64,000 nucleotides of DNA from Bacillota bacterium (lineage in GTDB: Bacteria; Bacillota; JAAYKD01), in NCBI GenBank assembly GCA_963666425.2, contig OY762825.2:1152001-1216000 (forward strand). The letters run 5' to 3'. The notes beneath the pieces were generated by a model that was not told the origin of the DNA, searched no databases, and saw only the letters and a list, made by a program, of their open reading frames with translations. Position 1 is the first letter of the stretch; the number at the start of each line of letters is the position of its first letter. The position numbers and the translations under genes are program-made. Shown here piece after piece: positions 2,592 through 23,400 of this stretch.

Positions 2592-2593
2592 AT

Positions 2594-3034: not shown

Positions 3035-3055
3035 ATCAACACCACCTTAGATGAA

Positions 3056-3084
3056 ATAATACCATATAGTACTATTAATGTCAA
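3056..3084 (-). promoter_or_regulatory. sigmaA promoter of marR operon with internal palindrome (putative MarR operator)
   Basis: TTGACA-17 nt-TATTAT on minus strand; perfect palindrome ATAGTACTAT at 3066-3075 in the spacer. Confidence 0.7.
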
Positions 3085-3126
3085 TACCTTAATTTATGAT
3101 TTAGTTATAAAAAATTAAAAAAATCA

Positions 3127-3163
3127 CGGCTCTGCTGATTCCATACAGAAATCAGCAGAGCCG
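3127..3163 (-). terminator. Rho-independent terminator after hsdR
   Basis: 14-bp perfect stem CGGCTCTGCTGATT/AATCAGCAGAGCCG followed by a T-run on the minus strand. Confidence 0.7.
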
Positions 3164-3232
3164 CTTGGCACATATGTTTAGGATTGGTTCGGTGATTTAA
3201 GGAAAGGGAGATTATCCAAGGTCATTTCACTT

Positions 3233-6200
3233 TTATGCTGCTACTGCATTTGCGTTGACTCGCTCAATCGCTTTTCGAATTCCTGCCCAAACAGAAAGAT
3301 TTTTAAACACTTCAACAATGCTGCCGCGATCCGTAAAAGGTGATTCCTGCAAAACAGACAGATCTTTCATCAAACCATTATGCACAATGTATTCAACGAT
3401 CTGGTTGACGAAATAGATTTGTCGGCTGTCCAGATTTGCGGTATTGAGATATTCCGCAAATGCTGTCTTGGCTGCATTGCTATCGAGACCGACGATCTCA
3501 CGTACAAATTCTCCCAAGGGCTTTTGACCACATTCCGTTTCATAATCCTGCTTTGTGCCCACCTCGCTCCAGAGGATTTTTTCCAAAGCTTTGACATCTT
3601 CTTTTGTAAGCGGAACATTGGTTTTTAGTTTGGCAATGGCAGCATTGTCCTGATGTTTCCGGATATAAAATTCTGCTTTTGCTTTGTAATTCCTGAGATC
3701 ATCATTCTCCAAATCGGATTCATGCCAGTCTGTTGATAAAATCTCATCCGCAAAATTGGTGGTGTATCTCATATCGCTGTGCGGAATATACTTCATCAGC
3801 CCGCGCAGATTTTCACGAATATGTTCAAACTCATTGATCCCGGCATTTTCCAGATAATCTGTATGCAAAATTTGATGAATCAACTCTGCCTGTGCCCTAA
3901 TCTCGGGAATATTTGCTACACCAGCGACACCGTTGATCCGTTTGAGAAGGTCGCTACGAGCACGAGTGTAATTTTTACCGACCAGATAAGCAAGCTCAAT
4001 TCCATAGATCAGCGCGTCGAAGCGGACGGCGCTTGCTTCATCTTCGTCCGGCAGGATCAACGGGGCCATTTCATTACCAACGATCAAGGTATCTTCATAG
4101 CAAAATGCATCATAGCTTTTTGGTTCGGAATACTGCTCCACAGACTTCAAATGCTGCTTGATCGCGAAATTTTCACGGTTCAATTCCTGTGCCTTGCGTA
4201 CCATGTCGTCTACTAAGCTTTTGCGGAAGGGAATCAATTCTTTCGTCTGGAAAGCAATGTCCTGCAGTTTGAAAACAATCTGCATTTTCAATTGATAAAT
4301 TGCACCCTGCAACGCCAGCATATTGGCTGTAGGCCGCCCTTTATTCATCCGGAAGAATTCAAAGTTGCCGCAGAAATCAAAAATATAAAACTTCTGCTTA
4401 TCTTCTCCATCCAAAAGACCCGGACAGAGACGGGTTCCGCGGCCGATCATCTGCCAGAACTTTGCCTTGCTCATCACCTTTTTGAAAAATACGAGGTTCA
4501 GAATCTCCGGAATATCAATACCGGTATCCAGCATATCTACCGAAATAGCGATCTGCGGCAGTTTGTTCGGCTCGGAAAATTCGTCGATAGCACTCTGTGC
4601 ATACGTCATGTAGTTATCGATAACCTTGGCATAACCGAACAAATTTGGGTACTCCTTACCGAAAATCTCATAAATCTTTTCGGCATGCAGGTGATTCTTG
4701 GCAAAAATGATCGTCTTGCCCAGCTTTTCCCCGTAGTTGATCTTGATTCCATCTGTCATCAGAACCTGTATTACCTGCCGGATAGTATCCTCATTGAAAA
4801 TCCACTCATTCAGGGCTGAGGAAGCAATCGATTCCGGCACTTCGCCGTTTTCATCCTCAAAAGTGTCCTCATAAATTGCCTTGTCTTGCTCGGAAAGATC
4901 ATCGTAGACGATACCCTGCTCGATGAATTTCAATTTCGTCTCCACAGACAGAAAATCCACCAGATAGCCATCGCTGACCGCCTGTGCCAACTCGTAGCCG
5001 TAGGTTGGCACACCATTTTCCAACTCGAATATTTCATAGGTGTTTTTTTCGATATCAATTTTTGGTGTTGCAGTAAGGCCCACCAACGGTGCATCAAAAT
5101 AAGTGAAAATATCACGGTATTTGTTATAGATGGAGCGGTGTGCCTCGTCACAGATCACCAGATCGAAGTGCCCGCAGGTGAAAAGCTTGCCCTCGTCATC
5201 CTTTACAGAGTCAATACAGTTCATCATCGTCTGATAAGTAGAAAAAACGCAGTGGGCGCTGTAATTGTCTTTTTCCTCGCAGAGATTGGTGAGAGACAGA
5301 TCGGGAAGGTAATTGACGAAATTGCGTTTGGCTTGTGTGACCAACGAATTGCGGTCGGCGAGAAACAGGATGTTTTTAATCCAGCCATGCTGCAGCAGCA
5401 CGTCGCACAAAGCAATGACCGTTCTCGTCTTGCCGGAACCGGTGGCCATCACCAGCAGCGCCTTGCGGCGATTGCGTGCGTCAAAGCTGTCGCAAATGGC
5501 CTTGATGGCTGCTTCCTCGTAATAGCGCCCGGCGATGTTCTTATTGACCATTACATACGCGAGACGAGTCCGCAATGACCGTAAATTGAACAATTTTTCC
5601 AGATCACGCTTGGAGTAGATACATGCAACTTTTCGCTCCGGATATAGGTTGTCAACAATACGCGTTTCAAAACCGTTGGTGAGAAAGACAATCGGGCGAC
5701 GGTGATATTTCTGTTCTAATAAATCGGCATAAAGTTTTGCTTGCTGGCGGCCCTTGGCAACATCCACGCACGTACGTTTTGCTTCCACCACCGCAAGCGG
5801 TCTTCCATCGTCTCCATAGAGCACATAATCGGCATAACCTATTTCAGACCAGTTTGGCATGCCGGGCAATTCAACTTCGCTCAGCCAATCATGGCCTTCC
5901 GTCCAACCCGCATCCGCCAGCATGGCATCGATATAGATTTTGCGTGTCTTATATTCTGAAAGCTCCAGCGGCTTGGGCACATAAGTTTGCTGCTGTTCCT
6001 CCCGACGGGCTGTCAGCTCTTCTTTCAGCGCTTTGTTTTCGGCGATGAGTGCTTTCAGATCAACCTCCGGTACTTCAAGAAGAGGAGGTGTAACCATGGC
6101 CGGTTCCGTCTGCAGAAGTGCGGCATCAAACTTACCTTCCACGTAATCTTTTCCATAGCAGTAAGCGACAAAATCAAGGAAAACATACAGGTTTTCCAGG

Positions 6201-6529
6201 CACAGGGCTGCTTGCTCAAGTGTTACCTTTTTACCGCTGTGGACGGCGTTATTGCCCATTTTGCGGATGAAATCCATGCGCCGCCAAATATCGATGCCCA
6301 CAACATCATGGAATTCTTCCGCATTCATCAGATTGACCAACGTATCTTGATACGGCATGACAAGGCTGCCGTCCACGGAATACATCCATTTGACGGCAAA
6401 CTCCATCGCGCGGCGGCAGTTGATAATACTTGCCTCCACATCAAGTTGCAGGATTCGTTCTGCCGACACCGCTACATCCGCAAAGGAGGCAAACTGCGGG
6501 TCGGAGTGAAGAAAATCAAAGTTGGTCAT
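3233..6529 (-). CDS. hsdR: Type I restriction enzyme R subunit (DUF4145-like N-term, EcoEI-type C-term)
   Basis: ADYVL..VEAK nuclease motif, MATGSGKT Walker A, DEAH, LTATP, QMIGRGTR. Confidence 0.95.
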   Translation of the reverse strand: MTNFDFLHSDPQFASFADVAVSAERILQLDVEASIINCRRAMEFAVKWMYSVDGSLVMPYQDTLVNLMNAEEFHDVVGIDIWRRMDFIRKMGNNAVHSGKKVTLEQAALCLENLYVFLDFVAYCYGKDYVEGKFDAALLQTEPAMVTPPLLEVPEVDLKALIAENKALKEELTARREEQQQTYVPKPLELSEYKTRKIYIDAMLADAGWTEGHDWLSEVELPGMPNWSEIGYADYVLYGDDGRPLAVVEAKRTCVDVAKGRQQAKLYADLLEQKYHRRPIVFLTNGFETRIVDNLYPERKVACIYSKRDLEKLFNLRSLRTRLAYVMVNKNIAGRYYEEAAIKAICDSFDARNRRKALLVMATGSGKTRTVIALCDVLLQHGWIKNILFLADRNSLVTQAKRNFVNYLPDLSLTNLCEEKDNYSAHCVFSTYQTMMNCIDSVKDDEGKLFTCGHFDLVICDEAHRSIYNKYRDIFTYFDAPLVGLTATPKIDIEKNTYEIFELENGVPTYGYELAQAVSDGYLVDFLSVETKLKFIEQGIVYDDLSEQDKAIYEDTFEDENGEVPESIASSALNEWIFNEDTIRQVIQVLMTDGIKINYGEKLGKTIIFAKNHLHAEKIYEIFGKEYPNLFGYAKVIDNYMTYAQSAIDEFSEPNKLPQIAISVDMLDTGIDIPEILNLVFFKKVMSKAKFWQMIGRGTRLCPGLLDGEDKQKFYIFDFCGNFEFFRMNKGRPTANMLALQGAIYQLKMQIVFKLQDIAFQTKELIPFRKSLVDDMVRKAQELNRENFAIKQHLKSVEQYSEPKSYDAFCYEDTLIVGNEMAPLILPDEDEASAVRFDALIYGIELAYLVGKNYTRARSDLLKRINGVAGVANIPEIRAQAELIHQILHTDYLENAGINEFEHIRENLRGLMKYIPHSDMRYTTNFADEILSTDWHESDLENDDLRNYKAKAEFYIRKHQDNAAIAKLKTNVPLTKEDVKALEKILWSEVGTKQDYETECGQKPLGEFVREIVGLDSNAAKTAFAEYLNTANLDSRQIYFVNQIVEYIVHNGLMKDLSVLQESPFTDRGSIVEVFKNLSVWAGIRKAIERVNANAVAA

Positions 6530-6541
6530 GACAAAGTTACC

Positions 6542-7072
6542 TCAATCTTTCAAGAAAAAATCAGGATTATCGTTAAATGCAGTTATTAACCAAGGCTGAG
6601 CATTAAATCCGACAATCATTTCCTTGGTGAATGGATCGATATCCGTTATTTGTCCTGGTTGATATATATAACCTATCTGAGTTAAATATAATGCATTACC
6701 ATCATTCATATCCAGACGAATTTGTTTATGATCATTCAATAAAAGCTGCCTTATGTATTCTTTTTGTTTATTGTCTAGAGATTTGAACATCTTCTTAAAT
6801 GATCTTATGGTTCTACACCGCTTTAGCCGTTTTGAACCAGAAGAAATGAGAATTTGGAGAACAATAATAAGCGTGAGAAATACACAAAACAAAAACAACA
6901 CCGAAATACACAACATCCAGTTTTCCGGTATATTGGCAAGATGCAACCTTTGGAGCATATCTTCAGGCATGAACAGTATAAAGCTTGACACGATACCAAT
7001 AGAAACAACAACTGGACTTATTTTTTTCAAATGTTCAAATAACTTATCAAGATGAACATCTATTTTCAACAC
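6542..7072 (-). CDS. Two-TM membrane protein resembling superinfection exclusion B (SieB) family
   Basis: Two N-terminal hydrophobic helices (ILFMPEDMLQRLHL between them), basic linker, then SLDNKQKEYI..LDMNDGNALYLTQIGYI wHTH-like tail; GGAGG SD; AT-rich. Confidence 0.6.
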   Translation of the reverse strand: MLKIDVHLDKLFEHLKKISPVVVSIGIVSSFILFMPEDMLQRLHLANIPENWMLCISVLFLFCVFLTLIIVLQILISSGSKRLKRCRTIRSFKKMFKSLDNKQKEYIRQLLLNDHKQIRLDMNDGNALYLTQIGYIYQPGQITDIDPFTKEMIVGFNAQPWLITAFNDNPDFFLKD

Positions 7073-7092
7073 AATTGCCTCCCCAAAACATT

Positions 7093-7155
7093 CTAAATCT
7101 GTGATTTCAGTATCATGCGAACTTCAGAATGGATTAAAAAATCAAAATTGGTCAT
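7093..7155 (-). pseudogene. Remnant duplicate of the hsdR 5' end (MTNFDFLIHSE...)
   Basis: AAGGTG SD then ATGACCAATTTTGATTTTTTA versus hsdR ATGACCAACTTTGATTTTCTT; first 7 aa identical. Confidence 0.7.
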
Positions 7156-7173
7156 GTCAGCACCTTGTCAGTA

Positions 7174-7908
7174 TTAGAAAATGGTTTTTATTACTTGTTC
7201 CGTTCCGCTAATTAACTCTTCAACCTCATCCTTATTGGGTTCTCGTTCTTTGCTGTGATCGCACAGATTTCGAATATCTCCCAATCTTTGTACTCTTCTC
7301 CATTCAACTGTATCGTATACATTATCTTTTAATGCATCATTGAAATCAGTTATTGTTGGATTCTTTTTTTTAGTAACAATCTCTCTAGTATGACACACTC
7401 CAGAAAAATGCTTTTCTAATACTACTCCACATATTGCACCAGCAGCTCTAAGAAAGCCCATTTTGAGCAGATGCTTTGCCGTTTCAATTTCCGAGTCGAA
7501 AATATCAGCTTGGAGTACTACTTGTATACTGTAAATCTTGCTATCGAATTTATCTAAACATGCTTGCAGCATTTTCACCTGTCGAAGCACATTAAGTGCT
7601 GCTGTCCACGGTCCATATAAGTCCCTTGTATGATGGATTCCCCGTAATGCATCTGAAATACTGTATGTCCCAAAATTAATCTCTTTCCGTTTAGGATTAG
7701 AATAAAGCAGTATAAAATCTTGAGTACGGTCTGGAATTAGCTGTTTTATAAGAACCAGTGCTTTTGTATACCATTCTTCATAATTCAAAATAAAAAAGCC
7801 AAAATCCTTACACTTAGATTTATCAATTCTTTCAAGCGAATAGTAAAGCTTATCTCCATGATCAATTAACTTCTGGATTTCATTTTTTAGCTCGGTATAT
7901 TCTTTCAT
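7174..7908 (-). CDS. HEPN/DUF4145-like domain protein (putative RNase effector)
   Basis: C-terminal AKHLLK..LRAAGAICGVVLEKH and RNLCDH (RxxxxH) motif; AT-rich. Confidence 0.65.
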   Translation of the reverse strand: MKEYTELKNEIQKLIDHGDKLYYSLERIDKSKCKDFGFFILNYEEWYTKALVLIKQLIPDRTQDFILLYSNPKRKEINFGTYSISDALRGIHHTRDLYGPWTAALNVLRQVKMLQACLDKFDSKIYSIQVVLQADIFDSEIETAKHLLKMGFLRAAGAICGVVLEKHFSGVCHTREIVTKKKNPTITDFNDALKDNVYDTVEWRRVQRLGDIRNLCDHSKEREPNKDEVEELISGTEQVIKTIF

Positions 7909-7919
7909 GCGTTCTCACC

Positions 7920-9083
7920 TCACCCAAAATACTGTTGCATGAGTGCTTTTTTTAGTGTCTCAAGCTTTTCCAGGCTCATTTGAATTTCAAGTTTTGATTT
8001 GTCGATTTGTTTGACGAAGTCAGAAAATTGCTCTTGTAGTCCCAACGGAGGTAGAATAATCATGTAGTCTTCAATTTGTGCGCTGCTTACATTTGGTTGA
8101 AGCGAATTACCACTCATTCTATCTACATAATCCTTAAAGTCATCAGTTCTACACAGAACTTCAAGAAATATTGGCGTAATGCCTCTTTTCATTTGAAATC
8201 TTCCAACTCGTTGATTCAATAAGCATGGCAAATCTCTGCTTGAAACTTTTGCAATTTTCACTGAATTAAGTGACTTAATTATAGGACGAGTCATTGCCAT
8301 AACTAAATCGCCATCTTGCAATGCAAATTCTTGATACTTTGTGAGATATTCCTGCGGTACAGAATTGACAACGTCCCAATTAATAAAATCCTTGTTCACA
8401 TTGCCAATTTGAACGAGTGGAACACCTTCGTCAACAAAAGCCTTACTCATAAAAGCATATCCGCCTTGCAGTCTTGCATAATCACCCAACTGAACTACAG
8501 GATAATCAAATTGATTATTATTTACCGTACCGAAAATCTCGACAAACCGGGATTTGATGAGGTCTTCCAGTTTAGCAAGCTGTTGCTTGCGGAGGGAAAT
8601 GAGATTGATTATTTTTCTAAATGCAGCAGCGATTCTCTTCTGTTCATCCAAAGGTGGAAGTGGTATTTCGATGTTTTCAACAATACCTTTTGATATTTCT
8701 TTGAATGTGGCTCCGCGTCCTAATGAGTTAAGACAATCCGTGTTCCCTTTCAGGAAAAAATACAAATACTCATTAAAAACACGATCTGAGCAAATTAGGT
8801 TTTTGAAGCCTTGATTGCAGCACATTTTGCATCCTGCTATAGCCGTTTTTCCAATAGGAGCGCGGGAAGATAAAATCACGGTTCCCGCAGGAAATGGGTG
8901 TAGCCCTGTTTTTCTCTTTCCTTCTTCTGTAATATGGCGTGAAGAGTCAAAAATGTAAAACGAATCATCTGATAATTCAGCGGGCGTAATCCATTTTATA
9001 TCTCCATCCCAGTATTCATTCATGTTCGTTTTTGGAGTAGAGCCAGATATGACCTTACATACATCCCCCAATTTCGCCATCAT
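7920..9083 (-). CDS. hsdS: Type I R-M specificity subunit (two TRDs)
   Basis: KLGDVC, IPLPPLDEQKRI, LPPLGLQEQF, KKALMQQYFG conserved regions. Confidence 0.95.
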   Translation of the reverse strand: MMAKLGDVCKVISGSTPKTNMNEYWDGDIKWITPAELSDDSFYIFDSSRHITEEGKRKTGLHPFPAGTVILSSRAPIGKTAIAGCKMCCNQGFKNLICSDRVFNEYLYFFLKGNTDCLNSLGRGATFKEISKGIVENIEIPLPPLDEQKRIAAAFRKIINLISLRKQQLAKLEDLIKSRFVEIFGTVNNNQFDYPVVQLGDYARLQGGYAFMSKAFVDEGVPLVQIGNVNKDFINWDVVNSVPQEYLTKYQEFALQDGDLVMAMTRPIIKSLNSVKIAKVSSRDLPCLLNQRVGRFQMKRGITPIFLEVLCRTDDFKDYVDRMSGNSLQPNVSSAQIEDYMIILPPLGLQEQFSDFVKQIDKSKLEIQMSLEKLETLKKALMQQYFG

Positions 9084-10579
9084 ACCATCTCCTTCAGTTC
9101 TGCCAAGCTCTTAATAATTTCCTTTTCGATCTCATGCAGGTCTGCCATGATTTCCTTCGTTGAGAGGTACTCCGTCTTAACATAGTCCGTCTTTTTATAT
9201 TTGTTAATGGAAAGGTCATAATCGTTCCCGACGATTTCAGCTTTCGGCACCAGAAAGGATTTTTCTGTTCTGGCACGGTCGGCTTCCTCATCCCTGTTTT
9301 TAAAACGCTCAATAATGTCGGGAATGTCGTTGTTATCCGGTGTAAGTGTCCGTTTGTCATCTAGGCTCATACCATCAGCAGTCATATTATAGAACCACAC
9401 GTTATCCGTGCCGCCATGGCCGGTCTTCGTAAATACTAAAATTCCGGTGGAAACGCCGGCATAAGGCTTGAACACGCCGGAAGGCATGGAAATGACTGCT
9501 TCCAGTCGATTACCCTCAATTAGCTCCTTACGGATAGCCTTATGCGCTGTGGAGGATCCAAACAGCACGCCGTCTGGTACGATGCAGGCACAGCGACCGC
9601 CCACCTTCAACATGCGCAAGAAAAGCGCCAAAAATAGCAGCTCGGTTTTCTTTGTCTTGCAAACTTTCAGAAGGTCAGTGGAAACCGTATCGGAATCCAA
9701 GCTGCCCTTGAACGGTGGATTGGCGAGGATCAGAGAATATCGTTCTCTATCTGGGTTCTGATCGGACAGGCTGTCGCGGTACTCTATAAACGGATTATCT
9801 ACGCCATGCGTCATCATGTTCATGGCGCCGATACGAAGCATCGTCCGATCCATGTCGTAGCCATGAAACATGTGGTTCATGTAGTGGCCTTTTTTTTGCT
9901 TGTCGAAGAAAATTTCTTCTTTGTAATGCTCTTTTAGGTATTCAGCAGCGGTCACCAGGAAGCCAGACGTGCCACAGGCGGGATCGCAGATTACATCGTC
10001 CGGTCGCGGTGCAAGCAGTTCCACCATCATACGGATAACGTGACGTGGTGTGCGGAACTGACCGTTCATACCGGAGGTGGAAATTTTAGAAAGCAGATAT
10101 TCGTAGACATCGCCACGCACATCCGATTCTTTCATGGCGGACATTTGGCGATAGATTTCATCCAGAGCGTCCACAATCTTGGAGAGCATCAGCGGTGTTG
10201 GGATTTTGAAAATAGCGTCATCCATATATTTGGAATAGGCGCTTTCTTTGTTCCCATGCAGATTTTTAATGAATGGGAACACTAGTTCTTGTACGACCGA
10301 GTACATTTTACCTGCCGGAAAATCGTGAAACACCGACCATTTGAGCTGGTTGCCGTCTACCCGGCGATCGCCAATCTGCACCTCATTGGCAAAAATGCTT
10401 TCAAAAGAAAGCCCCAGCATAGCACTCTCCTTAGCGCGCAGGTTGTCTGTGTCATCCAAGTCACGGATGAACATGAGATAGGTCATCTGCTCCACTACAT
10501 CCAACGGATTGGTCAGCCCACCGGTCCAGAACATTTCCCAAAGGCTATCGATTCGATTTTTCAGTTCGCCTGTTATCAT
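9080..10579 (-). CDS. hsdM: Type I R-M N6-adenine methyltransferase
   Basis: GQFRTPR, DPACGTSGFL, NPPF motifs. Confidence 0.95.
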   Translation of the reverse strand: MITGELKNRIDSLWEMFWTGGLTNPLDVVEQMTYLMFIRDLDDTDNLRAKESAMLGLSFESIFANEVQIGDRRVDGNQLKWSVFHDFPAGKMYSVVQELVFPFIKNLHGNKESAYSKYMDDAIFKIPTPLMLSKIVDALDEIYRQMSAMKESDVRGDVYEYLLSKISTSGMNGQFRTPRHVIRMMVELLAPRPDDVICDPACGTSGFLVTAAEYLKEHYKEEIFFDKQKKGHYMNHMFHGYDMDRTMLRIGAMNMMTHGVDNPFIEYRDSLSDQNPDRERYSLILANPPFKGSLDSDTVSTDLLKVCKTKKTELLFLALFLRMLKVGGRCACIVPDGVLFGSSTAHKAIRKELIEGNRLEAVISMPSGVFKPYAGVSTGILVFTKTGHGGTDNVWFYNMTADGMSLDDKRTLTPDNNDIPDIIERFKNRDEEADRARTEKSFLVPKAEIVGNDYDLSINKYKKTDYVKTEYLSTKEIMADLHEIEKEIIKSLAELKEMV

Positions 10580-11638
10580 TTATTCTTTCTCCCTATTCCA
10601 TGTATAGGAGGCGTAGCGCCCCCCACTGAGCTTAATGATTTCATCGCTTTTCAGCAGGTTATTCAGGGCCCGTTGGATGGTAACCTGACTGATGTCCGGG
10701 CATTTTTGCATGATTTCTGTTTTGGTGATTTTGCCAAGCGTCCCTTTAATGATCTCCCGAACACGATCCGCTTTGGAAAGATTACTGGTTGTCAGAAGCT
10801 GCATACGGGAAGAAAATTCCCGATATGCCGCAACAATCACGCCTAGCATATATCGCACAAATGGCATATAGTCATTTTTTTCTTCGTGCCAGCCTTCGGA
10901 ACTTTGCTGCAGAGTTTCATAATAGGTTTCTCGTGACATCTCGATCAGCTTTTCAATACTGATATATTTGCTAACGTTATAGCCACCGCGATAGAGTAAA
11001 AGCAGTGTCAGAAGACGACTCATGCGGCCGTTGCCATCGTTGAAGGGGTGAATGCAAAGAAAATCCAGAATAAACACTGGAATGAGCAGTAACGGATCGT
11101 ATTCGGCATTTTTGCTGGCTTCTTCCAGCGCAACGCAGAGCTGTTCCATCGCCTCTGTCGTCTCCCACGCTGGCACTGGTTGGAACCTGATGAACTTATT
11201 CCCTTGTGCATCTTCTTCCGCAATCACATTATCGGCGCTTTTATAAGAACCGCCGGTGCTTTTTCCGCTGAATTTATAGAGATCGCGGTGCAGCTGCAGG
11301 ATCATGGACGGTTTTGGTGGGATGAAGTCATGGCTTTCGTGAATCGTGGCAAGCACATCGCGGTAGCCGGCAATTTCCTCTTCGTTTCTGGTTTTCGGCA
11401 TTGTTTTATCACTGATAATTTTCTTCAATCGTTCGTTGGAAGTCGAGATGCCTTCGATTTTATTGGACGCCTCGGCACTCTGAATTTTCGCGACCTCAAC
11501 GAGTTGCGTCAATGTGTCGCTTTGAGCTTCAATAAATTGATTCTGCTCTCCCTTGAATTCATGGATTTGCACCAGAAGCGCAACGGTTTCTGGAGTAAGC
11601 AAAGCATGATATATCTTGTCATAATTGTATTTCCGCAT
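10580..11638 (-). CDS. Fic-family protein (class II, N-terminal inhibitory motif, C-terminal wHTH)
   Basis: HPFNDGNGRMSR catalytic motif; SNKIEG inhibitory motif; stop directly abuts hsdM ATG. Confidence 0.9.
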   Translation of the reverse strand: MRKYNYDKIYHALLTPETVALLVQIHEFKGEQNQFIEAQSDTLTQLVEVAKIQSAEASNKIEGISTSNERLKKIISDKTMPKTRNEEEIAGYRDVLATIHESHDFIPPKPSMILQLHRDLYKFSGKSTGGSYKSADNVIAEEDAQGNKFIRFQPVPAWETTEAMEQLCVALEEASKNAEYDPLLLIPVFILDFLCIHPFNDGNGRMSRLLTLLLLYRGGYNVSKYISIEKLIEMSRETYYETLQQSSEGWHEEKNDYMPFVRYMLGVIVAAYREFSSRMQLLTTSNLSKADRVREIIKGTLGKITKTEIMQKCPDISQVTIQRALNNLLKSDEIIKLSGGRYASYTWNREKE

Positions 11639-11844
11639 AGTATTACCTCAGTTCAAAATCAACTTGCTCATACGTTTCATATTGATGCAATTACAGAATA
11701 TCTCCATTTTCATCAAAAGTCAAGATCAATTTGATCATTATTTTCTTATATGAGTAAATTGATATGCGCGGTGATGCAACAACGCCGCCCGAGAGAATTA
11801 CTCCCTTAGGCGGCGCCGTTATTGAGGTTAGCTTCAAGTGATCT

Positions 11845-12230
11845 GTACACCGTGATTGTTCTGCACCGACTTGAAAAAGTTCTTCGCAATTTCGCTCTTG
11901 CTGTCATAATCCACGGACAAAGAAAAATACCTTTGATTTTTCAATAAAGCCGCTTTTCACTAGCTCGGTTGTCACGAATCCGCTCAAGCAGCTCATCAAA
12001 GTAGTCGGCACCGAATTCTTTCGGGCTTCGTAGGCGCTCATCATTCAGGACAAAGCTTATCTTCATGTACTAACTGAGAATGTCATTGGCTCATCTGCAA
12101 AGATGAACACCGATGTTGCTGGAACGTAAACAAAGAAAAAATCATATCAAGACTGTAACAATCCGTTTCTCTGGAGATCTCATCCCCGGTGGCTTTATCA
12201 CGCCGGAATATCCAGAAATGCTATCTTGGA
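11845..12230 (-). pseudogene. RhuM-family (virulence RhuM) pseudogene
   Basis: Hand translation: YSLDMIF..., FVLNDERLRSPKEFGADYFDELLERIRDNRASEKRLY*, SVDYDSKSEIAKNFFKSVQN with several stops/frameshifts; ends approximate. Confidence 0.8.
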
Positions 12231-12311
12231 GCCTTGTTTGCTATAGCATTTTCAACTAATTATTCAATATTGTTCTTTATATAATAAGCACGTGGTTATC
12301 GTCCTAAGTTA

Positions 12312-15300
12312 CTATTTAAAAACTAATTTTATGTCATCCAAATTGTAGTATTCAATCCCACCTTTTCTAGCTCTAATACTCGGCGGAATCAGTTCTATCA
12401 ACTCCTGTCTTGTATGTACGCCCGGTAAAACATAATATGTTCTATCGTAACCTAAAAATAAAATACTCCAACCTTCTCTAACCCCCTGAACATATGTATC
12501 ATCTTTCCCAATGTAATCTTTGAGTTTGAGTTCGTCATCTTCCGTAATATCTCTGGGTGCAACATATTCAAACAGAGCATAGTCTATATATTCTTCTCTC
12601 GCTAATCTTATATAGGTGTTCAATTCAAATAAGCTGAAGTAATTCTGAATCTTTTCAACACGTCCAATCAAGCAAAGCGGTTTTCCAAAACGCTCCTTAT
12701 TATGTGATGATATACCGATTTTCGGGTTCACAAGAGCTGGCTCAATAATGCCCATTCCATATAACCCGTTTCCGATTTTTGAGATTATTTTTATCCGTCT
12801 CTCGTCTAGAGAATAATTATCTTCCCTTTCTCGCTCTTTTATTTTACTAAATAGCCTCTCAGGCACTACCGGCCACAAACTAGTAACCAAATCATATTGC
12901 TCAAAACGCCCTTCCCATTTATCTGCCTTTAATACATATTGAACATGACGCAATAACGTTCTATCTTCTTTTAGCGCAACCGATGGCGGGAAAAATAGAT
13001 TTGACTTAATATTTATGCTTTCGTCCAAAACTCCAATTGCTTCAGCTGCGAACGCTTTTCCAAAAAATAATTGTCTTGCTACATCATCCAGCTGCCTAAT
13101 ATCAATATTTTTAAATGTTACATCGGGGAGTCTTACTAACTCACTTAGAGAGTTTGTTTTTTGATCGATTAAATTCACTTTGTCTAGCTTCATTGAGCCG
13201 TACTCTGTAGCTGATAATTGCTGAAGTATATCACCAGAAAATTCCTCAAACTCGTATAATAGAATGTTGATCGTCAGTTGAGCCTCGGCTGAATCGGCTC
13301 CAATCTTTTCCTCTCTTAAATATGCCACTACAACTTCTACGACTTTAATTATTAGTTTATCGACAAGTTTTTTTAGGATCTCGGTAAGGTCTTCCGAAAA
13401 ACCTACTATATTGTTTCGGTCAACAGACAATACGGGCCTTTTTTCTCCAATGAAATTCAATATGACACTAGAGTTCTGAGACAAACTATACCCTAGTAGT
13501 GCATATTTTTTTAAATGCACGGAATTTTCATTTACGACAACCCCGTCGACTAAAATTGTTAGTTGACTAGTTTTCCATAAATACCTAGAAAAACTAAAAA
13601 CATAACGATTTAGTACGGGAATGCCCTTTTGAGGCAAACAAATAAATGTGTGTAGCTGAACACCGTCAAATCCTACACAAATTGGTATATCTTTGATAAA
13701 ATTGCGGCATGTTATAACATCTTTATATTGATTTTCGTTATCATTTTCTAAATTGTATCGCCCAAAAGCTGTTGCAAATGCAGCGACATTTGTATTTGGA
13801 TATTTCCTAAAATCAAAAATTTCATTAAATGGAATAATCGGGTGTGATTTATCGTTTTCGTCGTATACGCAGACTTCAATATCGGGGTCAGGAATGCCTA
13901 TTTGCTTGTTCACTTTCCAGAAAAGGCTGCTTTCAAATTCTTTATAGCTTGATTTATCAAATGTTTCATCGTACCTGCTGTTATTCCCTGCAAAAATAAA
14001 ATAATACAAATCCTTTGGAATGATACAATTGATTATTTCAGAAGTCTTTCCGTTAAGGAAAATTTTTACTAGTGTACCATGTTCGCCTATGCGCTCATTA
14101 TCAAGTTCGTTGATAGGTATATGATAAAATCGCTCATTAGCCCCTTCTATTACAAAGGACAATGGTATAATAGCATTTTCATAGTGCTTTGTAGTTATTT
14201 CAAGTGCATCACCTAACATAAAGCATGAAAGAATACCTATTCCGAATTGGGATGTTGGGTTTACCGCATTTGACCAATTGGCATTTTTCCTAATAAAATC
14301 GCGAGATTTATAGTATGAATTGCCAATGTGCAAAAGGTGATTTTTTACAATATCCATCGTCATGCCTGTTCCATTATCTAAGCAATAAATATATGTTCGA
14401 CCATTGCTGTCGGTTGACAATCCAAAGGATATTTTATAATTACTAAATACACTTCTTGTTATGTCGATTGCTTTCATACATTTGCATGCATCGAGCGAGT
14501 TTTGGTAAAGTTCTCGCAAACAAAGGTATTCATCTTTATAAAGTTGTGCACCCGCCAAAAGACCGAGAATTTTAGATTGCTCCAAGGTAAACTTTGCATC
14601 GTTTTCAGGTATAAATATTGATGTATCAGCATCAATTCCTGTTCTATCCGCAGCTATCGCAATTTTAATATCATAGTTCTCCCGATTAGGTATATCATCA
14701 TATTCTAATCGCTGTAGAAATTTAAAGTATAGCGCAATCTCATCGTCAACAGAGTCCAAATAATCCTGTAAAAAATAGTAAGTATCCGGCGATGAACAAT
14801 ATGCTTTAAATTTTATGGTTGTCTTGGAATTGGTATTGCTAAATTCATAATGTGTTTCCTCGAATTTTGACTTCCAATGCTTATAACTTACTGGGTCAGT
14901 AATTTTCTTTTCGGCAAACAGCGACATGGGTGCTCTATCCGAAGAAAAATGAATAATATCGCCAAGTCTTAACATAATTGCTACAAATTGAACATTCACC
15001 TTACCAAGAGAATCTATTTCATAGTCAAAATCTAACTTTTTGACATCAACGGCTTCATCCCCATGCGCTTTACAAACTTTGGCTAAGACGTTCAGATACT
15101 TATCTGCAGTAGATTTTTTTAGCAACGCTCTGAATCTTTTACGCATATTGCCAATAAATTCAACAATACGTTTATTATGTGTTGTTCTAATGAAGTCACA
15201 CCTAATTAGATTGCTATAATTGAGATAATCATAGCTATCTAATTTTTTGTTTCTTAATTGATCTGAAAACCCGTTTCGAAATTCTTCATAAGACCGTACA

Positions 15301-15812
15301 CGTTTCGCTAAATCAAGTTGTAGTTCGGCTTCGTTCTCGGGAGCAAAAATAAAACTCTCCACATTGCTGTATTTCACATATATATAGCGTTTATTCTCAT
15401 CGATAATTTTCTCTATTTCAATTAAAGACTGAACCGGCTTAAAATCGTTCTTAATGCAAGGTTTCACATCCCGATTATAATGTTCCTCACATCCTTCAAA
15501 AGCTTTTAATAAATCGTATTCCCATTTAGGGAGCGCCATTGCAGCATCATGAAAAAAGCAACTTGAATATATTAGTATAGCTTCAAGGAATGATAAATCG
15601 GCCATTTTAACTCCAAGAAGGTTTTCAATATTTTCTAAAACCTTTTCGGAGTGATTAGCGTCGTGTATATCAAAATTATTCAATTGAGCAGTTATTTGAG
15701 ATAAATGGGTTTTGCAATCTTCAATAGCGTCTTTTAATGTTGACCACAATGTAGCCTTTGCCTCATTGCCATCTATTTTCAATTTTTCTTCTATGAAATC
15801 ATCTAACTTCAT
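12312..15812 (-). CDS. HD-domain + HSP90-like (GHKL) ATPase multidomain protein, putative defence/conflict protein
   Basis: N-term HDANHS..FFHDAAM..RTTH..KAHG..RLGD; central RELYQNSLDA, DNGTGM, SQFGIGILSCF, HGTLV; long uncharacterised C-term; AT-rich. Confidence 0.8.
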   Translation of the reverse strand: MKLDDFIEEKLKIDGNEAKATLWSTLKDAIEDCKTHLSQITAQLNNFDIHDANHSEKVLENIENLLGVKMADLSFLEAILIYSSCFFHDAAMALPKWEYDLLKAFEGCEEHYNRDVKPCIKNDFKPVQSLIEIEKIIDENKRYIYVKYSNVESFIFAPENEAELQLDLAKRVRSYEEFRNGFSDQLRNKKLDSYDYLNYSNLIRCDFIRTTHNKRIVEFIGNMRKRFRALLKKSTADKYLNVLAKVCKAHGDEAVDVKKLDFDYEIDSLGKVNVQFVAIMLRLGDIIHFSSDRAPMSLFAEKKITDPVSYKHWKSKFEETHYEFSNTNSKTTIKFKAYCSSPDTYYFLQDYLDSVDDEIALYFKFLQRLEYDDIPNRENYDIKIAIAADRTGIDADTSIFIPENDAKFTLEQSKILGLLAGAQLYKDEYLCLRELYQNSLDACKCMKAIDITRSVFSNYKISFGLSTDSNGRTYIYCLDNGTGMTMDIVKNHLLHIGNSYYKSRDFIRKNANWSNAVNPTSQFGIGILSCFMLGDALEITTKHYENAIIPLSFVIEGANERFYHIPINELDNERIGEHGTLVKIFLNGKTSEIINCIIPKDLYYFIFAGNNSRYDETFDKSSYKEFESSLFWKVNKQIGIPDPDIEVCVYDENDKSHPIIPFNEIFDFRKYPNTNVAAFATAFGRYNLENDNENQYKDVITCRNFIKDIPICVGFDGVQLHTFICLPQKGIPVLNRYVFSFSRYLWKTSQLTILVDGVVVNENSVHLKKYALLGYSLSQNSSVILNFIGEKRPVLSVDRNNIVGFSEDLTEILKKLVDKLIIKVVEVVVAYLREEKIGADSAEAQLTINILLYEFEEFSGDILQQLSATEYGSMKLDKVNLIDQKTNSLSELVRLPDVTFKNIDIRQLDDVARQLFFGKAFAAEAIGVLDESINIKSNLFFPPSVALKEDRTLLRHVQYVLKADKWEGRFEQYDLVTSLWPVVPERLFSKIKEREREDNYSLDERRIKIISKIGNGLYGMGIIEPALVNPKIGISSHNKERFGKPLCLIGRVEKIQNYFSLFELNTYIRLAREEYIDYALFEYVAPRDITEDDELKLKDYIGKDDTYVQGVREGWSILFLGYDRTYYVLPGVHTRQELIELIPPSIRARKGGIEYYNLDDIKLVFK

Positions 15813-16088
15813 TAAAATTACCTCACATTACTACTGCATAGCGCCTATACTTCAATAAATCCATTTACTCCAACTTATGTAATAATTACCCATTGGTTAA
15901 ATACGACTCCGCTTAAGCATGTGACCTCTCCTTTTGGCTAATGCCTAATTTCTCACGTGCATTTTGCAATCGCGGAAAAAAATATTTGGCCGTATCTTAT
16001 ATATGCATTATAACACATGTTTTAGAATATGTGGACTTTTTTGACATAATTTTAATGCTATCCAAGAAACCAGAATTTTTGCATTAGA

Positions 16089-17045
16089 TAGATTGTAAAA
16101 TGGTGTGCGCTACCCTAAATGGGTAAAAGGATAGCCCACAGTGAAAGATTCATGTAGAATGGAGTTGTTAAGACAACATTCAAGCGGGGTTGAATACTAG
16201 AATCATTATCACTCGGATATTTGCACAGAGCAATTGCTTAAAAAACCTTATCGGCATCATGCCAGCATTGACCGTGAAGTTCGTCGCAATGAATCTAATA
16301 GTGTTTATTTTGGAGAGGTTACACAATCTTCTTATGAGACTCGCCGCAAGCACCTTAAGCCAAATGGAAAACACAAGGGTTATTTGGTACCCGGTATCAC
16401 AGAGAAACTACTGGTAACTTGGTTCCCCAGAACAAATTGCTAATACGGTTACACTGGGTATCGTTAATTGCAAAATCATTTACAATTGGCTTTACGCTAG
16501 TGAAATTCCTACAATCATTGAACAAAATCTGTAACAAAAGAGTAAACGTAGAAATGCTGAAATACCTTTGGTCACTAGGTTACTTGACAGTATGGTTTCC
16601 AGCCGTGGAGAAAACAAGGTCTGCTCTGACACATTTGAAGAGAGAAAACCCAGCTGTATACCGCACTCAAGGCACCTAACAAAACGGCATCTTCTATGCA
16701 AACAGCCATTACTGCCCTTTACAACACGCTGCAGAAAAGCACTTTCATGACTAGTACAACGAATCGATGAAAAGAGTTTGCCTGTTATATAGCTATTCTA
16801 GAGTCCTTAAGTCTGATCTTACATTTTGCCGATTCCTACTTTTTCGTGGCAACGTGGAAGCAAAGAAAATTCCAACAGCTTACTGCGAGAGTTTTTATCT
16901 TGAGAAAACAGATCTCACTCTAGTGTACCTGGAGCAAATAAAACACAATCTATTTCTCATTAACTCCAGACCACGAAAACACCTGGACAGGAAATCACCT
17001 ATTCAAGTTTTCTTCATGAAATGGCTCACTTGACTTGACAATTCA
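16089..17045 (+). mobile_element. Degenerate IS30-family element (transposase pseudogene)
   Basis: Fragments HASIDREVRRN and EFY..KTDL..INSRPRKHLDRKSP; imperfect IRs TAGATTGTAAAATGGTGTGCGC / (rc) TGAATTGTCAAGTCAAGTGAGC; many frameshifts. Confidence 0.75.
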
Positions 17046-19671: not shown

Positions 19672-19760
19672 TTTTCACTAAGTTTTTATCTTATTTTTTT
19701 ACGCCAAGGTGGTCAACTTTTCGAATAGCAAGGTGGTCAACTTTTCGATTGACAAATACA

Positions 19761-19929
19761 GTAGCAAACTATTTTTTCAAAATATTTCTTATTTACCCTA
19801 CCTTCTATGGTCAGAAAGCCCATGTAAATTAAATTGGTTGTTGAGTTTTTGATCAACTTTGTAGGCATATGATTTTGATACGCTCAATTCTTTAGCTACA
19901 TCTTCGACACACATGAAAGCATTACTCAT
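19761..19929 (-). pseudogene. Excisionase-like HTH gene, frameshifted and interrupted by IS21 (tail at about 17300-17318)
   Basis: MSNAFMCVEDVAKELSVSKSYAYK..KLN then frameshift to GFLTIEGRVNKKYFEKIVCY; resumes as ANS* beyond the IS. Confidence 0.75.
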
Positions 19930-20180
19930 ATATTCCCACCTTCTTTTTTGTTGCCAATCTCCGCTAAAATGTTTCGTGACAGGCGCCCATTTGTGGCACT
20001 GTGTCGTTTTAATTCCTTGATAGACTCGCTCAGTTGAGGTAGTGGCACGCTTTCCCGGAACGTAGGCTGTTCGAATGGTCATTTCTTTTACTAGATATAA
20101 TTGCTTGTATATTTATTGACTGTGTTTAAACCTATATGCTATACTGATTGCAAAGTATACACAGAATGGAGTTAGTTGCC

Positions 20181-20690
20181 ATGGCAATCAGCGAACGAAT
20201 CAGGTTTATTCGCAATCCGCAAGGTATAACACAAAAATATATGGGTATGGCGATCGACTTTCCGGAGAGAACCACCGACATTCGCATAGCACAGCATGAA
20301 TCCGGTAAACGAAAGCCAAAGGTCGTTTTGACCGATGTACTTGCATCGGCTTTGGAAGTATCTCCTCTGGCGTTAAACGTTCCTGACATTGATAGTTATT
20401 ACGGGCTATGCATACCCTGTTTGTCATTGAGGATTTATATGATCTGCAGATTGGTGAGATTGACGGCGAAATGTGTCTACATCTCGATAAATTTCGCGGA
20501 ACATCCTATCTGAACATGTTTGATATGTTCAAAGCATGGCAGAATGAAGCTAAAAAGCTAAAAAAAAATGAAATTACCAAAGAGGAATAAATATGATCAA
20601 TGGCGTTATACTTATTCAAAAATCAAAGCCAAACGAACCAGAGCAGCGTTTGATGATCTACGTGAGAAATTTGAGGAATTGAAGCAATAA
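20181..20690 (+). pseudogene. XRE-family repressor of integrative elements, frameshifted
   Basis: MAISERIRFIRN..GITQKYMG..VSPLALNVPDIDSY | MHTLFVIEDLY..EITKEE* | YDQWRY split over frames. Confidence 0.8.
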
Positions 20691-20743
20691 ATCGTCATGG
20701 GAAATTAACTGAAATGAATGCAGAAGACTGATGGAGAAAACTA

Positions 20744-21588
20744 ATGGACAAACTTCAATACGACAGTTTTTATAAATTTCTTGTTTCAATTGGAGCAATA
20801 CTCATTGCGACCCCAGTCATAGGAATTTATCAACTTTTTACTGGTTCTTATGACATAATAATCAGTGAGCAGGAGTATTAAGTCTATCGGGACTCTCGCT
20901 ACTGTCTTTAGAAAATCGAGCAAAAATGTTAAAATTCATTTCCTCTGTATTTCCTTGGGTTTGTTTAGTAATAATAGCAATAGGCCTTGTATGTGTAGTT
21001 TATGGTTGCCGAAAATGGTATTTGCTCCAAAAAGAGATAGACGAGCAGACACACTTAGAAACACTTAAGAAACGCATCGATGCCAAACAGCTAACCACTT
21101 CCGAAGCTGTCGAACGTGCTATTGACGAAGTTATTGAGAATAACGAAGTCAATATTCCAACGAGTATGAATTCCCAGAAAAAAGCCATTGTGGATGCCAT
21201 TCAAATCGAGTATCAATATTGCGATTTTTTAAAGCGTCGACTACCTAATAAATATTCTATTAAGCAAAATGTCCGCATTGGCAATAGTGAATATGATATT
21301 GTAGCAATTTCTGAAAAAGATAAAACTGACTTATTATATGAAATAAAATATTGGAACACACCAAAGCCAATGCATTTACTATCCCGAGTATTAGAACGAA
21401 TTAAAGTTGCTGGGCAGAATTACGAAGACATTTCAAACCGAAATTATAGATTCAAACTTATAATTATTTCAGACCCCGAAGTACTATCTGATGTTAGGTC
21501 TGCATGCGAGCGTTATCTTGCAAAACATGATGTTAATTTCCCGCCTTTTACGGACATTGATTATTTCAGCACAAAGGAAATTCACTAG
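20744..21588 (+). pseudogene. Two-TM protein with C-terminal PD-(D/E)XK-like domain, one-base frameshift near 20878
   Basis: GGAG SD + MDKLQYDSFYKFLVSIGAILIATPVIGIY..EQEY then TAA; one extra T joins it to ORF 20926..21588, which has a second TM and YDIVA..YEIKY motif. Confidence 0.6.
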
Positions 21589-21741: not shown

Positions 21742-23277
21742 TTATTCCCACTCAATCGTGGCAGGCGGTTTTGAGGTGATATCATAAACAACACGGTTGA
21801 TTTCCGGCATTTCGTTGATAATACAGCCGGAGATTTTTTCCAATACATCGTATGGAATCCGCGCCCAATCGGCGGTCATGCCGTCCACACTGGTGACAGC
21901 ACGCACAACAATCGTTTGGCTGTAGGTGCGTTCGTCGCCCATCACACCCACCGATTGGATATTCGGCAGCACCGTAAAGCATTGCCAGATCACACGGTCA
22001 AGACCGGCATTGGTCAGTTCACGGCGCATGATATAGTCACTTTCACGCAGGATGCGCAGTTTTTCCAGGGAGAGCGCTCCCAGGCAGCGAATCGCCAGAC
22101 CCGGTCCCGGGAAGGGTTGACGATAAACCACTTTTTCCGGCAGACCAAGTTCTAAGCCCAGTTCGCGGACTTCATCTTTGAACAATTCTCTCAGCGGCTC
22201 AATCAGCTGGAATTTCATATCTTCCGGCAAACCGCCAACGTTATGGTGCGATTTGATGGTGGCGGCTGTTGCGGTTCCGCTTTCCACCACATCGGGATAA
22301 AGGGTTCCCTGCACCAAGTAATCAATTTCGCCCAACTTATTTGCTTCTTCTTCAAAGACGCGGATAAATTCAGTGCCGATGATTTTTCGTTTTTTCTCCG
22401 GTTCCGAGACGCCCTCCAATTGCTTGAGGAAACGCTCAGAAGCATCGACTGCCACCATTTTGATTTTCAGTTCCTCACGGAATAATTGAATTACCTGAGC
22501 GCCTTCGTCTTTGCGCAGCATACCATGATCGACAAAGACACAGGTGAGATTTTCGCCAATGGCACGATTGACCAAAGCCGCCGCTACGGAAGAATCGACG
22601 CCGCCGGACAAGGCGCAGAGCACCTTGCTGTCGCCAACTTTGGCTTTAATCCGTTCCACTTCTTCTTTGAGAAAATCGGCCATCGACCAATCGCCCTTTA
22701 AGCCGCAGATCTGAAAGAGGAAATTCTTTAAAATCGCCATGCCGTGTTCAGTGTGCGTCACTTCCGGGTGAAACTGCACACCATACAGCTTTTTCTCCGG
22801 CAGCGCCATTGCCGCTACGGGAGAGTTCGGCGATTGCGCCAGTACCTGCCAACCTTGCGGCACTTCTTCAATGTAAACGCCATGGCTCATCCAGCAACTG
22901 CTGCTTTCCGTGACATTCTGCCATAGCGGAGAAGCTGTGTGATTAATCTGCAGCGTCGTTTTGCCGTATTCCTTTTTCTCAGCGCGGCTGACCCGGCCGC
23001 CCAAAAGATACGCCATCAGCTGCATGCCATAACAAATGCCGAGAACAGGAATTCCCAGCGAAAATAAAGCAGGATCAACCATCGGCGCCTGATCTGTATA
23101 GACTGTGGCAGGACCGCCGGAAAGTACAATCGCTTGGGGTTCCAGGGCTTTCAATGCATCTATGTTGATATTATAAGGTTTGATTTCGCAAAAAACATGG
23201 CATTCCCGAATGCGCCTGGCAATTAGCTGCACATATTGGCCGCCAAAATCAAGAATAATGACGCGTTGATGTTTCAT
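21742..23277 (-). CDS. guaA: GMP synthase (glutamine-hydrolysing)
   Basis: [35 protein letters not shown]. Confidence 0.98.
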
Positions 23278-23400
23278 TGGTATCAGCCTTCCCTCTCTTT
23301 TTCTATGCAGCAATTATAGCATATCCGAACGTTGCTTGGCAAGTGTGTCTTGATTGTTCGCCAAAATCATTTTCTGGGAGAATTGCATTTTCCGCAAATA

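Follow-up and report, generated by a model that had tools for sequence, protein, structure and literature searches.

The gene and its domain architecture

The stretch of DNA analysed here is a window of 64,000 nucleotides (nt) from a Bacillota bacterium (contig OY762825.2, positions 1,152,001 to 1,216,000 of the forward strand), and our subject is one gene on its minus strand that encodes a protein of 1166 amino acids (aa). The protein joins an N-terminal HD-type phosphohydrolase domain to an Hsp90-type ATPase module and a further C-terminal module, and we assign it to the HD-CE/Hsp90-like family, in which 'CE' stands for 'conflict effector' (10.64898/2026.01.15.699771; here and below, published work is drawn on as far as its accessible text goes). 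We show here that the central domains have an Hsp90-like fold with an intact ATP site. A preliminary description, made from the sequence of the window, had called the gene intact, and it is indeed a single uninterrupted frame (12312-15812; the coordinates of all features are collected in Table 1). Stop codons would make up about 7% of codons at the local guanine and cytosine (GC) content, so that 1166 codons in a row without one do not arise by chance (~1e-37). Full-length relatives (1150-1175 aa) align over 98-100% of the protein, and the source genome holds one copy of the gene. Promoter-like sites occur upstream about as often as in shuffled sequence (19 in the region against 19.2 in shuffles), and since their number does not exceed that of the shuffles, the best of them is a suggestion only.

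The N-terminal domain matches the Pfam family HD-CE (PF24391) with an E-value of 8.6e-39 and 134.2 bits against a cut-off of 27, over profile positions 3-261 of 263; the Pfam model for the inactive form, iHD-CE, gave no match to the protein. Conservation was judged, here and below, on a set of 54 full-length homologs that are 26-87% identical to the query. The metal ligands H50, H54, H88, D89, H212, H250 and D285 are invariant in this set, as are the further HD-domain residues D48, R209, R282 and R293, and the ligands are also kept across 35 wider HD domains. The ligand pattern H..HD..H..H..D that had been read from the sequence is thus borne out by the family match and by its invariance, and the catalytic site of the domain is, to judge from its residues, intact. 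In a scan of representatives of the Protein Data Bank (PDB), the HD region superposed on the HD-like domain of GppA (6pbz_A; Z 12.3, root-mean-square deviation (rmsd) 4.0, 182 residues aligned), on exopolyphosphatases (Z 10.4-11.9) and, with model residues 2..397, on the phosphodiesterase PDE1B (Z 12.0, rmsd 4.5, 236 aligned). Other class I cyclic-nucleotide phosphodiesterases (PDE7A, 9A, 3A, 4D and 5A) reached Z 10-12, with 210-236 residues aligned for the class, a range that, as the tool warns, a helical domain can attain through a common arrangement. A profile of the domain found no usable relative among the PDB sequences, the best hit being the H..HD segment of PDEB1 at E 0.36. The structural matches of the modelled domain point weakly to free-nucleotide substrates.

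Behind the HD domain follows the ATPase. HATPase_c_3 of Pfam matched at aa 432-547 (E 1e-5) and the N-terminal part of the NCBIfam HtpG model (NF003555) at aa 406-593 (E 3.7e-17). When the PDB sequences were searched with the single query, only N-domains of the Hsp90 family were returned (HtpG/Grp94/Hsp82; E 5.8e-10), and a profile of the 54 sequences found Hsp90 N-domains at aa 405-602 (E 2e-15). The N-terminal domain of Hsp90a superposes on model residues 399..652 (Z 16.3, rmsd 3.0, 181 aligned). All four GHKL motifs are invariant among the homologs, with E434, N438 and D441 in motif I, D479, G481 and G483 in motif II, G524 and G526 in motif III, and G579 and T580 in motif IV. Taken with the N-domain matches, this confirms the complete GHKL ATPase that had been proposed.

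The likeness to Hsp90 continues into a middle (transducer) domain. The whole protein was modelled with AlphaFold2 on the basis of the 54 homologs, and the model has a mean predicted local distance difference test (pLDDT) score of 87.8 and a predicted template modelling (pTM) score of 0.73. With this model, Foldseek found full-length Hsp90 chains (best E 8.5e-14, about 520 alignment columns), and VIA-align placed model residues 411..861 on residues 9..434 of Hsc82 (6xlg_A; Z 24.2, rmsd 4.0, 324 aligned); in several Hsp90 chains the alignment extends to model residue 918 against chain residue 533. When 48,161 PDB representatives were scanned without a filter, GRP94 (5uls_A) reached Z 21.1 and further GHL ATPases scored lower, with Z 12-15 for topoisomerases II, IV and VI, MutL, MORC2/3 and SMCHD1, and 10.1 for sacsin SR1. 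The profile reaches only the Hsp90 N-domain, with no Hsp90 match among the PDB sequences beyond aa 605, and the middle domain is therefore assigned by structure comparison. Its invariant residues are G757, G789, P793 and R799. The last of these lies within an LSVDR motif and, by position and motif likeness, would correspond to the arginine of the Hsp90 middle domain that touches ATP's gamma-phosphate. About 550 aa of C-terminus had earlier been described as unrecognised. Since aa ~600-866 superpose on Hsp90, roughly half of this part is Hsp90 middle domain, and the description holds for aa ~867-1166, which have no recognisable fold.

When aa 860-1166 were modelled separately on an alignment of 66 sequences, the result had pLDDT 92.3 and pTM 0.92. 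Compared with the 48,161 PDB representatives, this model reached Z 2 with six and Z 5 with none (best Z 2.8). Foldseek against the full PDB gave a best E of 0.93, Pfam found no match in the module, and the best feature score for aa 860-1166 in the ESM Atlas was 0.78, which is below the useful level. No Hsp90 chain was among the structural matches of this part, a missing match not being the same as a different fold. D974, G1114 and S1116 are invariant in the homolog set and W1115 is nearly so (at least 90%). A region search with aa 861-1166 returned 29 proteins, 28 of them with an HD-CE domain; the remaining one, 732 aa long on a 4.6-kilobase contig, is probably cut. Effector swapping on the module was not seen at the word-limited sensitivity of this search, from which the 'shorter' and 'longer' length classes were left out, and at that sensitivity the module appears to occur only in the HD-CE/Hsp90-like architecture. 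A two-copy complex prediction of aa 860-1166 scored 0.00, which is uninformative on dimerisation either way. Mean pairwise identity is higher in the HD domain (0.36) and the ATPase (0.49) than at aa 601-860 (0.22) and aa 861-1166 (0.25); both enzymes are thus kept intact, and what follows the ATPase diverges at about double the rate. The C-terminal module, lacking a structural relative, is the obvious place to seek the trigger-binding site.

Homologs and their genomic neighbourhoods

A phmmer search of 1.84 billion representatives gave 5729 matches at E<=1e-3; with the threshold lowered to E<=1e-10 there were 3570, and with E<=1e-30 there were 470. Roughly 100 matches are full-length (~1130-1210 aa), and the distant ones (700-1040 aa) share only aa ~200-560. 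With one genome per species, at least 554 relatives were confirmed, out of 589 pattern matches listed; the hosts among the matches listed are Bacillota, Bacteroidota, Pseudomonadota, Planctomycetota, Acidobacteriota, Spirochaetota and one Asgard archaeon. The closest relative, 87% identical, belongs to a Clostridiaceae metagenome-assembled genome (MAG) and is annotated as 'hypothetical protein', the close relatives generally bearing this name or 'HD domain-containing protein'. None of 60 related genomes (one of the same genus, four of the family, four of the order and 51 of the phylum) has a full-length match; two of them match aa ~407-596 only, in frames of ~630 aa that resemble ordinary HtpG. 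The GC content of the gene is 0.34-0.36, against mostly 0.45-0.53 in the surrounding chromosome. From this low GC content, the missing full-length matches in related genomes and the patchy distribution, the gene is foreign and accessory. Most likely it was acquired horizontally, within a defence island next to guaA. The preliminary description had spoken of such an island, rightly so, as the window contains an intact type I restriction-modification (R-M) system, a SoFic-like Fic gene and a SieB-family gene.

For the neighbourhood analysis 80 homolog loci were kept, 21 of which match past residue 1100. Two of these (L003 and L020) were dropped because of contig-end cuts, and 19 were analysed. 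Neighbour open reading frames (ORFs) of at least 80 codons, chosen by a longest-non-overlapping rule and up to three per side, came to 109, with L019 contributing downstream ORFs only and L011 a single downstream ORF. The commonest Pfam families among them are ResIII (5), RhuM (4) and DEAD (4), followed at three each by DUF4143, N6_N4_Mtase, AAA_14, AAA_15, RE_endonuc, phage integrase and SMC_N. KAP NTPase was found in two. The first member scanned is BrxC of BREX. Most frequent among the PADLOC families were the type III restriction enzyme (REase_III), PDC-S05 and PDC-S23, with four each. No family occurs in more than five of these ORFs, and thus no conserved partner gene surrounds the 19 loci, in agreement with the earlier reading as a single-gene system.

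Ten immediately upstream genes were picked by hand from the 19 loci, the BREX context of L001 being known beforehand, and seven of them have a PADLOC match: PglX of BREX (L001), LmuB (L002), GajB (L006), PDC-S31 (L007), a type IIG/II methyltransferase (L012), a type III methyltransferase (L014) and PDC-S49 (L018). The upstream genes of L010, L016 and L021 gave no PADLOC match. The R-M, BREX, Lamassu and Gabija neighbours support, as an association, the expected defence context of the homologs.

Individual arrangements are worth recording. In L001, from a Lachnospiraceae MAG, the homolog stands right behind brxC and pglX (1971-13549), as if it were within, or appended to, the BREX operon. In the Bacteroidales loci L014, L015 and L017 it follows 6-15 nt behind a gene of ~900 aa and one of ~630 aa, the latter being the type III methyltransferase in L014, and a conserved arrangement of type III R-M with HD-CE/Hsp90 may exist in this clade. 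RhuM occurs as a pseudogene beside the present gene and intact (PADLOC PDC-S05) in four of the 109 homolog neighbours; a recurrent association with HD-CE/Hsp90-like genes is possible. Fusions to other domains were also seen. P0188 (1314 aa) carries an N-terminal TIR_2/SEFIR domain ahead of HD-CE and ATPase; its cluster comprises four members of 1313-1315 aa, nearly full-length and of the TIR form, and one of 757 aa. In P0216 (1372 aa), TPR repeats stand at the C-terminus. TIR and TPR are both typical of immune proteins. Shorter relatives combine HD-CE, which in some also matches iHD-CE, and the ATPase with other tails.

Relation to known systems

According to the accessible text of papers that cite it, a study by Nicastro, Burroughs, Iyer and Aravind in 2023 (10.1093/nar/gkad879) defined the HD-CE/Hsp90-like family computationally. 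The preliminary description had mentioned computationally proposed fusions of HD and HSP90, and correctly so, the study of 2023 being cited to this effect in the Tiamat preprint (10.64898/2026.09.30.754977). The family as described in these papers and the present protein have in common the N-terminal HD-CE domain, the complete Hsp90-type ATPase, a variable and fast-evolving C-terminus, the position as a lone island gene and the patchy spread. We see no essential difference, and the protein is a member. For the subfamily of ~1150-1175 aa, our models would add the Hsp90 middle domain with its invariant R799 and a confidently modelled module of ~300 aa without PDB match, the content of the 2023 study being judged through the papers that cite it.

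Tiamat (TmtA) is a validated single-gene defence composed of an Hsp90-like ATPase, DUF3684 and a PD-(D/E)xK nuclease, and its action needs the ATPase site (E44A; 10.64898/2026.09.30.754977). Both proteins unite in one chain a hydrolytic effector, a transducer arginine and a GHL ATPase of Hsp90-like type. However, the effector is an N-terminal HD phosphohydrolase in the present protein and a C-terminal nuclease in Tiamat. In the tree of the same preprint, Hsp90-like proteins with HD or calcineurin domains group with Hsp90, outside the Tiamat-SACSIN clade. We rejected membership in Tiamat, as Pfam found neither DUF3684 nor NOV_C/DUF3883 and none of the PADLOC families matched. VcSduA / paraMORC3 (Shedu type I-D) unites a GHKL ATPase with a DUF4263 nuclease and requires both sites (E27A; PMC12137116). 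It resembles the present protein in the fusion of a GHKL ATPase to an effector and in the gating that is proposed, but it is MORC-like, has a nuclease as effector and another domain order, whereas the present protein is Hsp90-like. Membership in MORC, paraMORC or GHKL-Shedu was likewise rejected, with no DUF4263 found by Pfam and Z 12.6-13.9 for MORC2 and MORC3 against 21-24 for Hsp90.

In the PUA-Cal-HAD system, Calcineurin-CE collapses the pools of deoxynucleoside triphosphates (dNTPs) and aborts infection after the sensor has bound its ligand (10.64898/2026.01.15.699771). The effector is, as here, a 'conflict effector' phosphoesterase out of the same computational study; it is calcineurin-like, though, and works with a PUA sensor in a two-gene, filament-forming system without an Hsp90 module. 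With HtpG/Hsp90 itself the protein has in common the fold of N-terminal ATPase and middle domain (Z 21-24) and the motifs of the ATP site, and differs by its additional HD domain of 400 aa. A canonical HtpG is encoded elsewhere in the genome (G000:C1:782100-783437, a frame of 660 aa with 354 bits to PF00183). As the preliminary description had stated, the protein is not a canonical HtpG: it scores 62 bits with NF003555 against a cut-off of 371 and has no PF00183 match, and the genome holds its HtpG separately.

Proposed function

On balance we lean towards the view that the protein is a stand-alone anti-phage immune (conflict) protein of the HD-CE/Hsp90-like family, in which nucleotide hydrolysis by the HD-CE domain leads to abortive infection. 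The Hsp90-type N-terminal and middle domains would form an ATP-driven molecular clamp, dimerisation and clamp action being expected by analogy with GHL ATPases. A molecule that comes from the phage or is induced by infection may be bound by the C-terminal module and the fast-evolving middle domain, possibly as Hsp90 binds a client protein. Ligand binding and ATP-dependent closure would release the HD-CE phosphohydrolase, which could then hydrolyse free (d)NTPs, NAD-type or cyclic nucleotides; phage replication would stop and host growth would be sacrificed. The same model for HD-CE/Hsp90-like proteins is found in the Discussion of the Tiamat preprint, which cites the 2023 study for it (10.64898/2026.09.30.754977). 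The preliminary description had likewise read the gene as sensor, switch and effector in one. Architecture, single gene and defence context stand; the mechanistic part, namely sensing, ATP-gated activation, nucleotide depletion and phage protection as the core steps of the family hypothesis, is what we infer. If the family works as predicted, a chaperone-type ATPase clamp would couple recognition to nucleotide destruction within a single chain, a coupling that, to our knowledge, has been demonstrated for no Hsp90-like protein. The present gene is a good object for a test, as it is intact, has complete catalytic residues, its own ribosome-binding site, a plausible promoter and a model with pLDDT 87.8. 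More tentatively, and with a clearly smaller chance of being right, the conserved C-terminal ~300 aa might have a novel fold and, jointly with the Hsp90 middle domain, take hold of a phage protein as a 'client'. The protein would then act as an immune receptor of chaperone origin, reading the invader's protein folding or assembly states and answering with nucleotide collapse through the HD domain. If true, this would be an instance from bacteria of Hsp90 mechanics converted directly into pathogen sensing in one polypeptide.

Several points weigh against a nucleotide-hydrolysing anti-phage protein. With Z values of 10-12 for a helical domain and a best E of 0.36 among PDB sequences, the substrate class of the HD domain is weakly supported, and nuclease activity of HD-CE is compatible with the data. 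The C-terminal module yielded no hint of a binding partner. The neighbourhood of the homologs is an association and not a measured enrichment, because the upstream loci were picked by hand and the counts come without a matched control. HD-CE/Hsp90-like proteins are still called 'putative' in the accessible text of the Tiamat preprint of October 2026 (10.64898/2026.09.30.754977), and a full-text literature search, thin on subscription journals, found no experiments on them. None of the families of PADLOC 2.0.0 matches the protein; since no model recognises them, such genes are likely missed in defence censuses. Finally, the position of an intact gene among pseudogenes had been taken as a sign of selection. 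The gene is intact, and pseudogenes do flank it on both sides (RhuM fragments downstream, an IS30-family remnant upstream), but by itself the argument is weak, since recent acquisition could also explain the intact frame.

We regard it as unlikely that the protein defends as a nuclease, its HD-CE domain cutting phage or host DNA or RNA, in the manner of the HD domains of Cas3 and Cas10, after the clamp has loaded on nucleic acid, a course of action like that of Tiamat or GHKL-Shedu. Nucleases are indeed employed by Tiamat and VcSduA, which are validated GHKL defences of one gene each (10.64898/2026.09.30.754977, PMC12137116). In topoisomerases, MutL and MORC, which match here at Z 13-15, the middle domain of the GHL protein binds DNA, and the neighbours of the homologs are rich in DNA-targeting systems. 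Against this, the HD matches that rank best among the 50 listed are hydrolases of nucleotides or polyphosphate and phosphodiesterases of cyclic nucleotides, with no Cas3 or Cas10 HD nuclease in that list, and the ATPase module is nearest to Hsp90 proper (Z 21-24), the DNA-handling GHL members reaching only Z 13-15. In their accessible text, the citing papers moreover call the HD-CE family nucleotide-targeting (10.64898/2026.09.30.754977, 10.64898/2026.01.15.699771). Next in probability, and also unlikely, comes a module for selfish stabilisation or conflict between elements, that is a latent toxin that retains the island or opposes plasmids and integrative and conjugative elements, not phages. 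The gene is set among IS30, IS21, RhuM and Fic genes, 3 of the 109 neighbour ORFs of homologs are integrase genes, and the contexts of Calcineurin-CE have been termed 'anti-selfish element systems' (10.64898/2026.01.15.699771). The 109 neighbour ORFs include, however, neither an antitoxin-like small cognate gene nor a conserved partner, and the BREX, Gabija, Lamassu and R-M neighbours are mainly anti-phage; besides, such a role overlaps with that of an anti-phage immune protein instead of excluding it.

Lower again in our estimate, and improbable, is that HD-CE is a phosphodiesterase for signalling nucleotides, be they cyclic mono-, di- or oligonucleotides or (p)ppGpp, and tunes or shuts off another immune or stress pathway. 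Its nearest folds are the class I phosphodiesterases of cyclic nucleoside monophosphates and GppA, the H..HD segment of PDEB1 (E 0.36) is the sole hint at the level of PDB sequences, and one relative (P0188) carries a TIR domain, TIR domains making nucleotide signals in other systems. Yet these structural and sequence matches are weak, the gene travels alone, and the 109 neighbours include no gene of a cyclase, CBASS, Thoeris or type III CRISPR. That the protein is a paralog of HtpG which bears an accessory hydrolase and serves as a specialised stress chaperone, in a housekeeping or stress role outside conflict, would suit the resemblance of ATPase and middle domains to true Hsp90 above any other GHL family, but we consider it very improbable. 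The genome has its canonical HtpG elsewhere, a full-length match is found in 0 of the 60 related genomes, the GC content is foreign, and defence islands surround both this gene and its homologs. Furthermore, PF00183 does not match, and structure searches of aa 860-1166 recognised no Hsp90 C-terminal domain.

The defence island and flanking elements

Table 1. Features of the gene, followed by the elements of the island in the order in which they are met leftward along the minus strand, starting at guaA (21742-23313).
Feature	Position in window	Strand	Basis or remark
Complete gene, 1166 codons and stop	12312..15812 (stop codon 12312-12314)	(-)	ATG start, no internal stop
HD-CE phosphohydrolase domain, aa 1-400, predicted effector	14613..15812 (Pfam match aa 46-359 = 14736-15677)	(-)	PF24391
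Hsp90-type GHKL (Bergerat-fold) ATPase domain, aa ~401-660	13833..14612	(-)	Pfam, HtpG model, structure
Hsp90-like middle (transducer) domain, aa ~661-866	13215..13832	(-)	Structure comparison only
C-terminal module, aa 867-1166, fold without match, candidate sensor and/or dimerisation part	12315..13214	(-)	Structure model
Ribosome-binding site GAGGT, 7 nt 5' of ATG	15820..15824	(-)	Sequence reading
Top promoter-like site TCCACA-17-TATAAT with TG, ~195 nt 5' of start	16007..16035	(-)	Consensus match only
220-aa protein, hydrophobic N-terminus, no family	20926-21588		Between guaA and IS21; Pfam/PADLOC without match
IS21, apparently intact, istA 524 aa and istB 254 aa	17336-19671	(+)	Family matches
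IS30-family transposase remnant, multi-frame	16201-17033	(+)	tblastn and weak blastn
RhuM-family pseudogene, two out-of-frame fragments	11837-12069, perhaps to ~12220	(-)	PF13310 and blastn to RhuM genes
SoFic-like Fic gene	10580-11638	(-)	Directly after hsdM; PADLOC SoFic E 1.8e-39
hsdM	9080-10579	(-)	Type I R-M
hsdS	7920-9083	(-)	Type I R-M
244-aa protein	7174-7908	(-)	Between hsdS and hsdR; no Pfam or PADLOC match
SieB-family (superinfection exclusion) gene	6542-7072	(-)	PF14163, E 5.2e-18
hsdR	3233-6529	(-)	Type I R-M

The remnant upstream of the gene was recognised by nucleotide and translated searches. With tblastn, 16201-16440 matched three Paenibacillus plasmid records at E 1e-7 to 1e-4; the best match overlies no annotated feature, and the other two, at E 9e-6 and 1e-4, fall on transposases annotated as IS30-family. 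A weak blastn match connects the remnant to an IS30 transposase. A tblastn search of 16755-17030 matched nothing, and neither did Pfam on the four IS30-like fragments. On the downstream side, the two RhuM fragments match PF13310 in different frames with E 3.7e-13 and 1.8e-5; two of the four fragments of this region gave no Pfam match. The interval between IS21 and guaA (19798-21588) contains, besides the gene in Table 1, a 94-aa ORF on the minus strand and another of 121 aa, apparently interrupted, to which HTH_3 matches faintly (E 0.061). A repeated motif containing GGTGGTCAACTTTTCGA stands directly after istB, at 19700-19750. Further along, the SieB-family gene and the gene for the 244-aa protein split hsdR from hsdS in an otherwise intact type I R-M system, and this pair looks like defence genes embedded inside the R-M operon.

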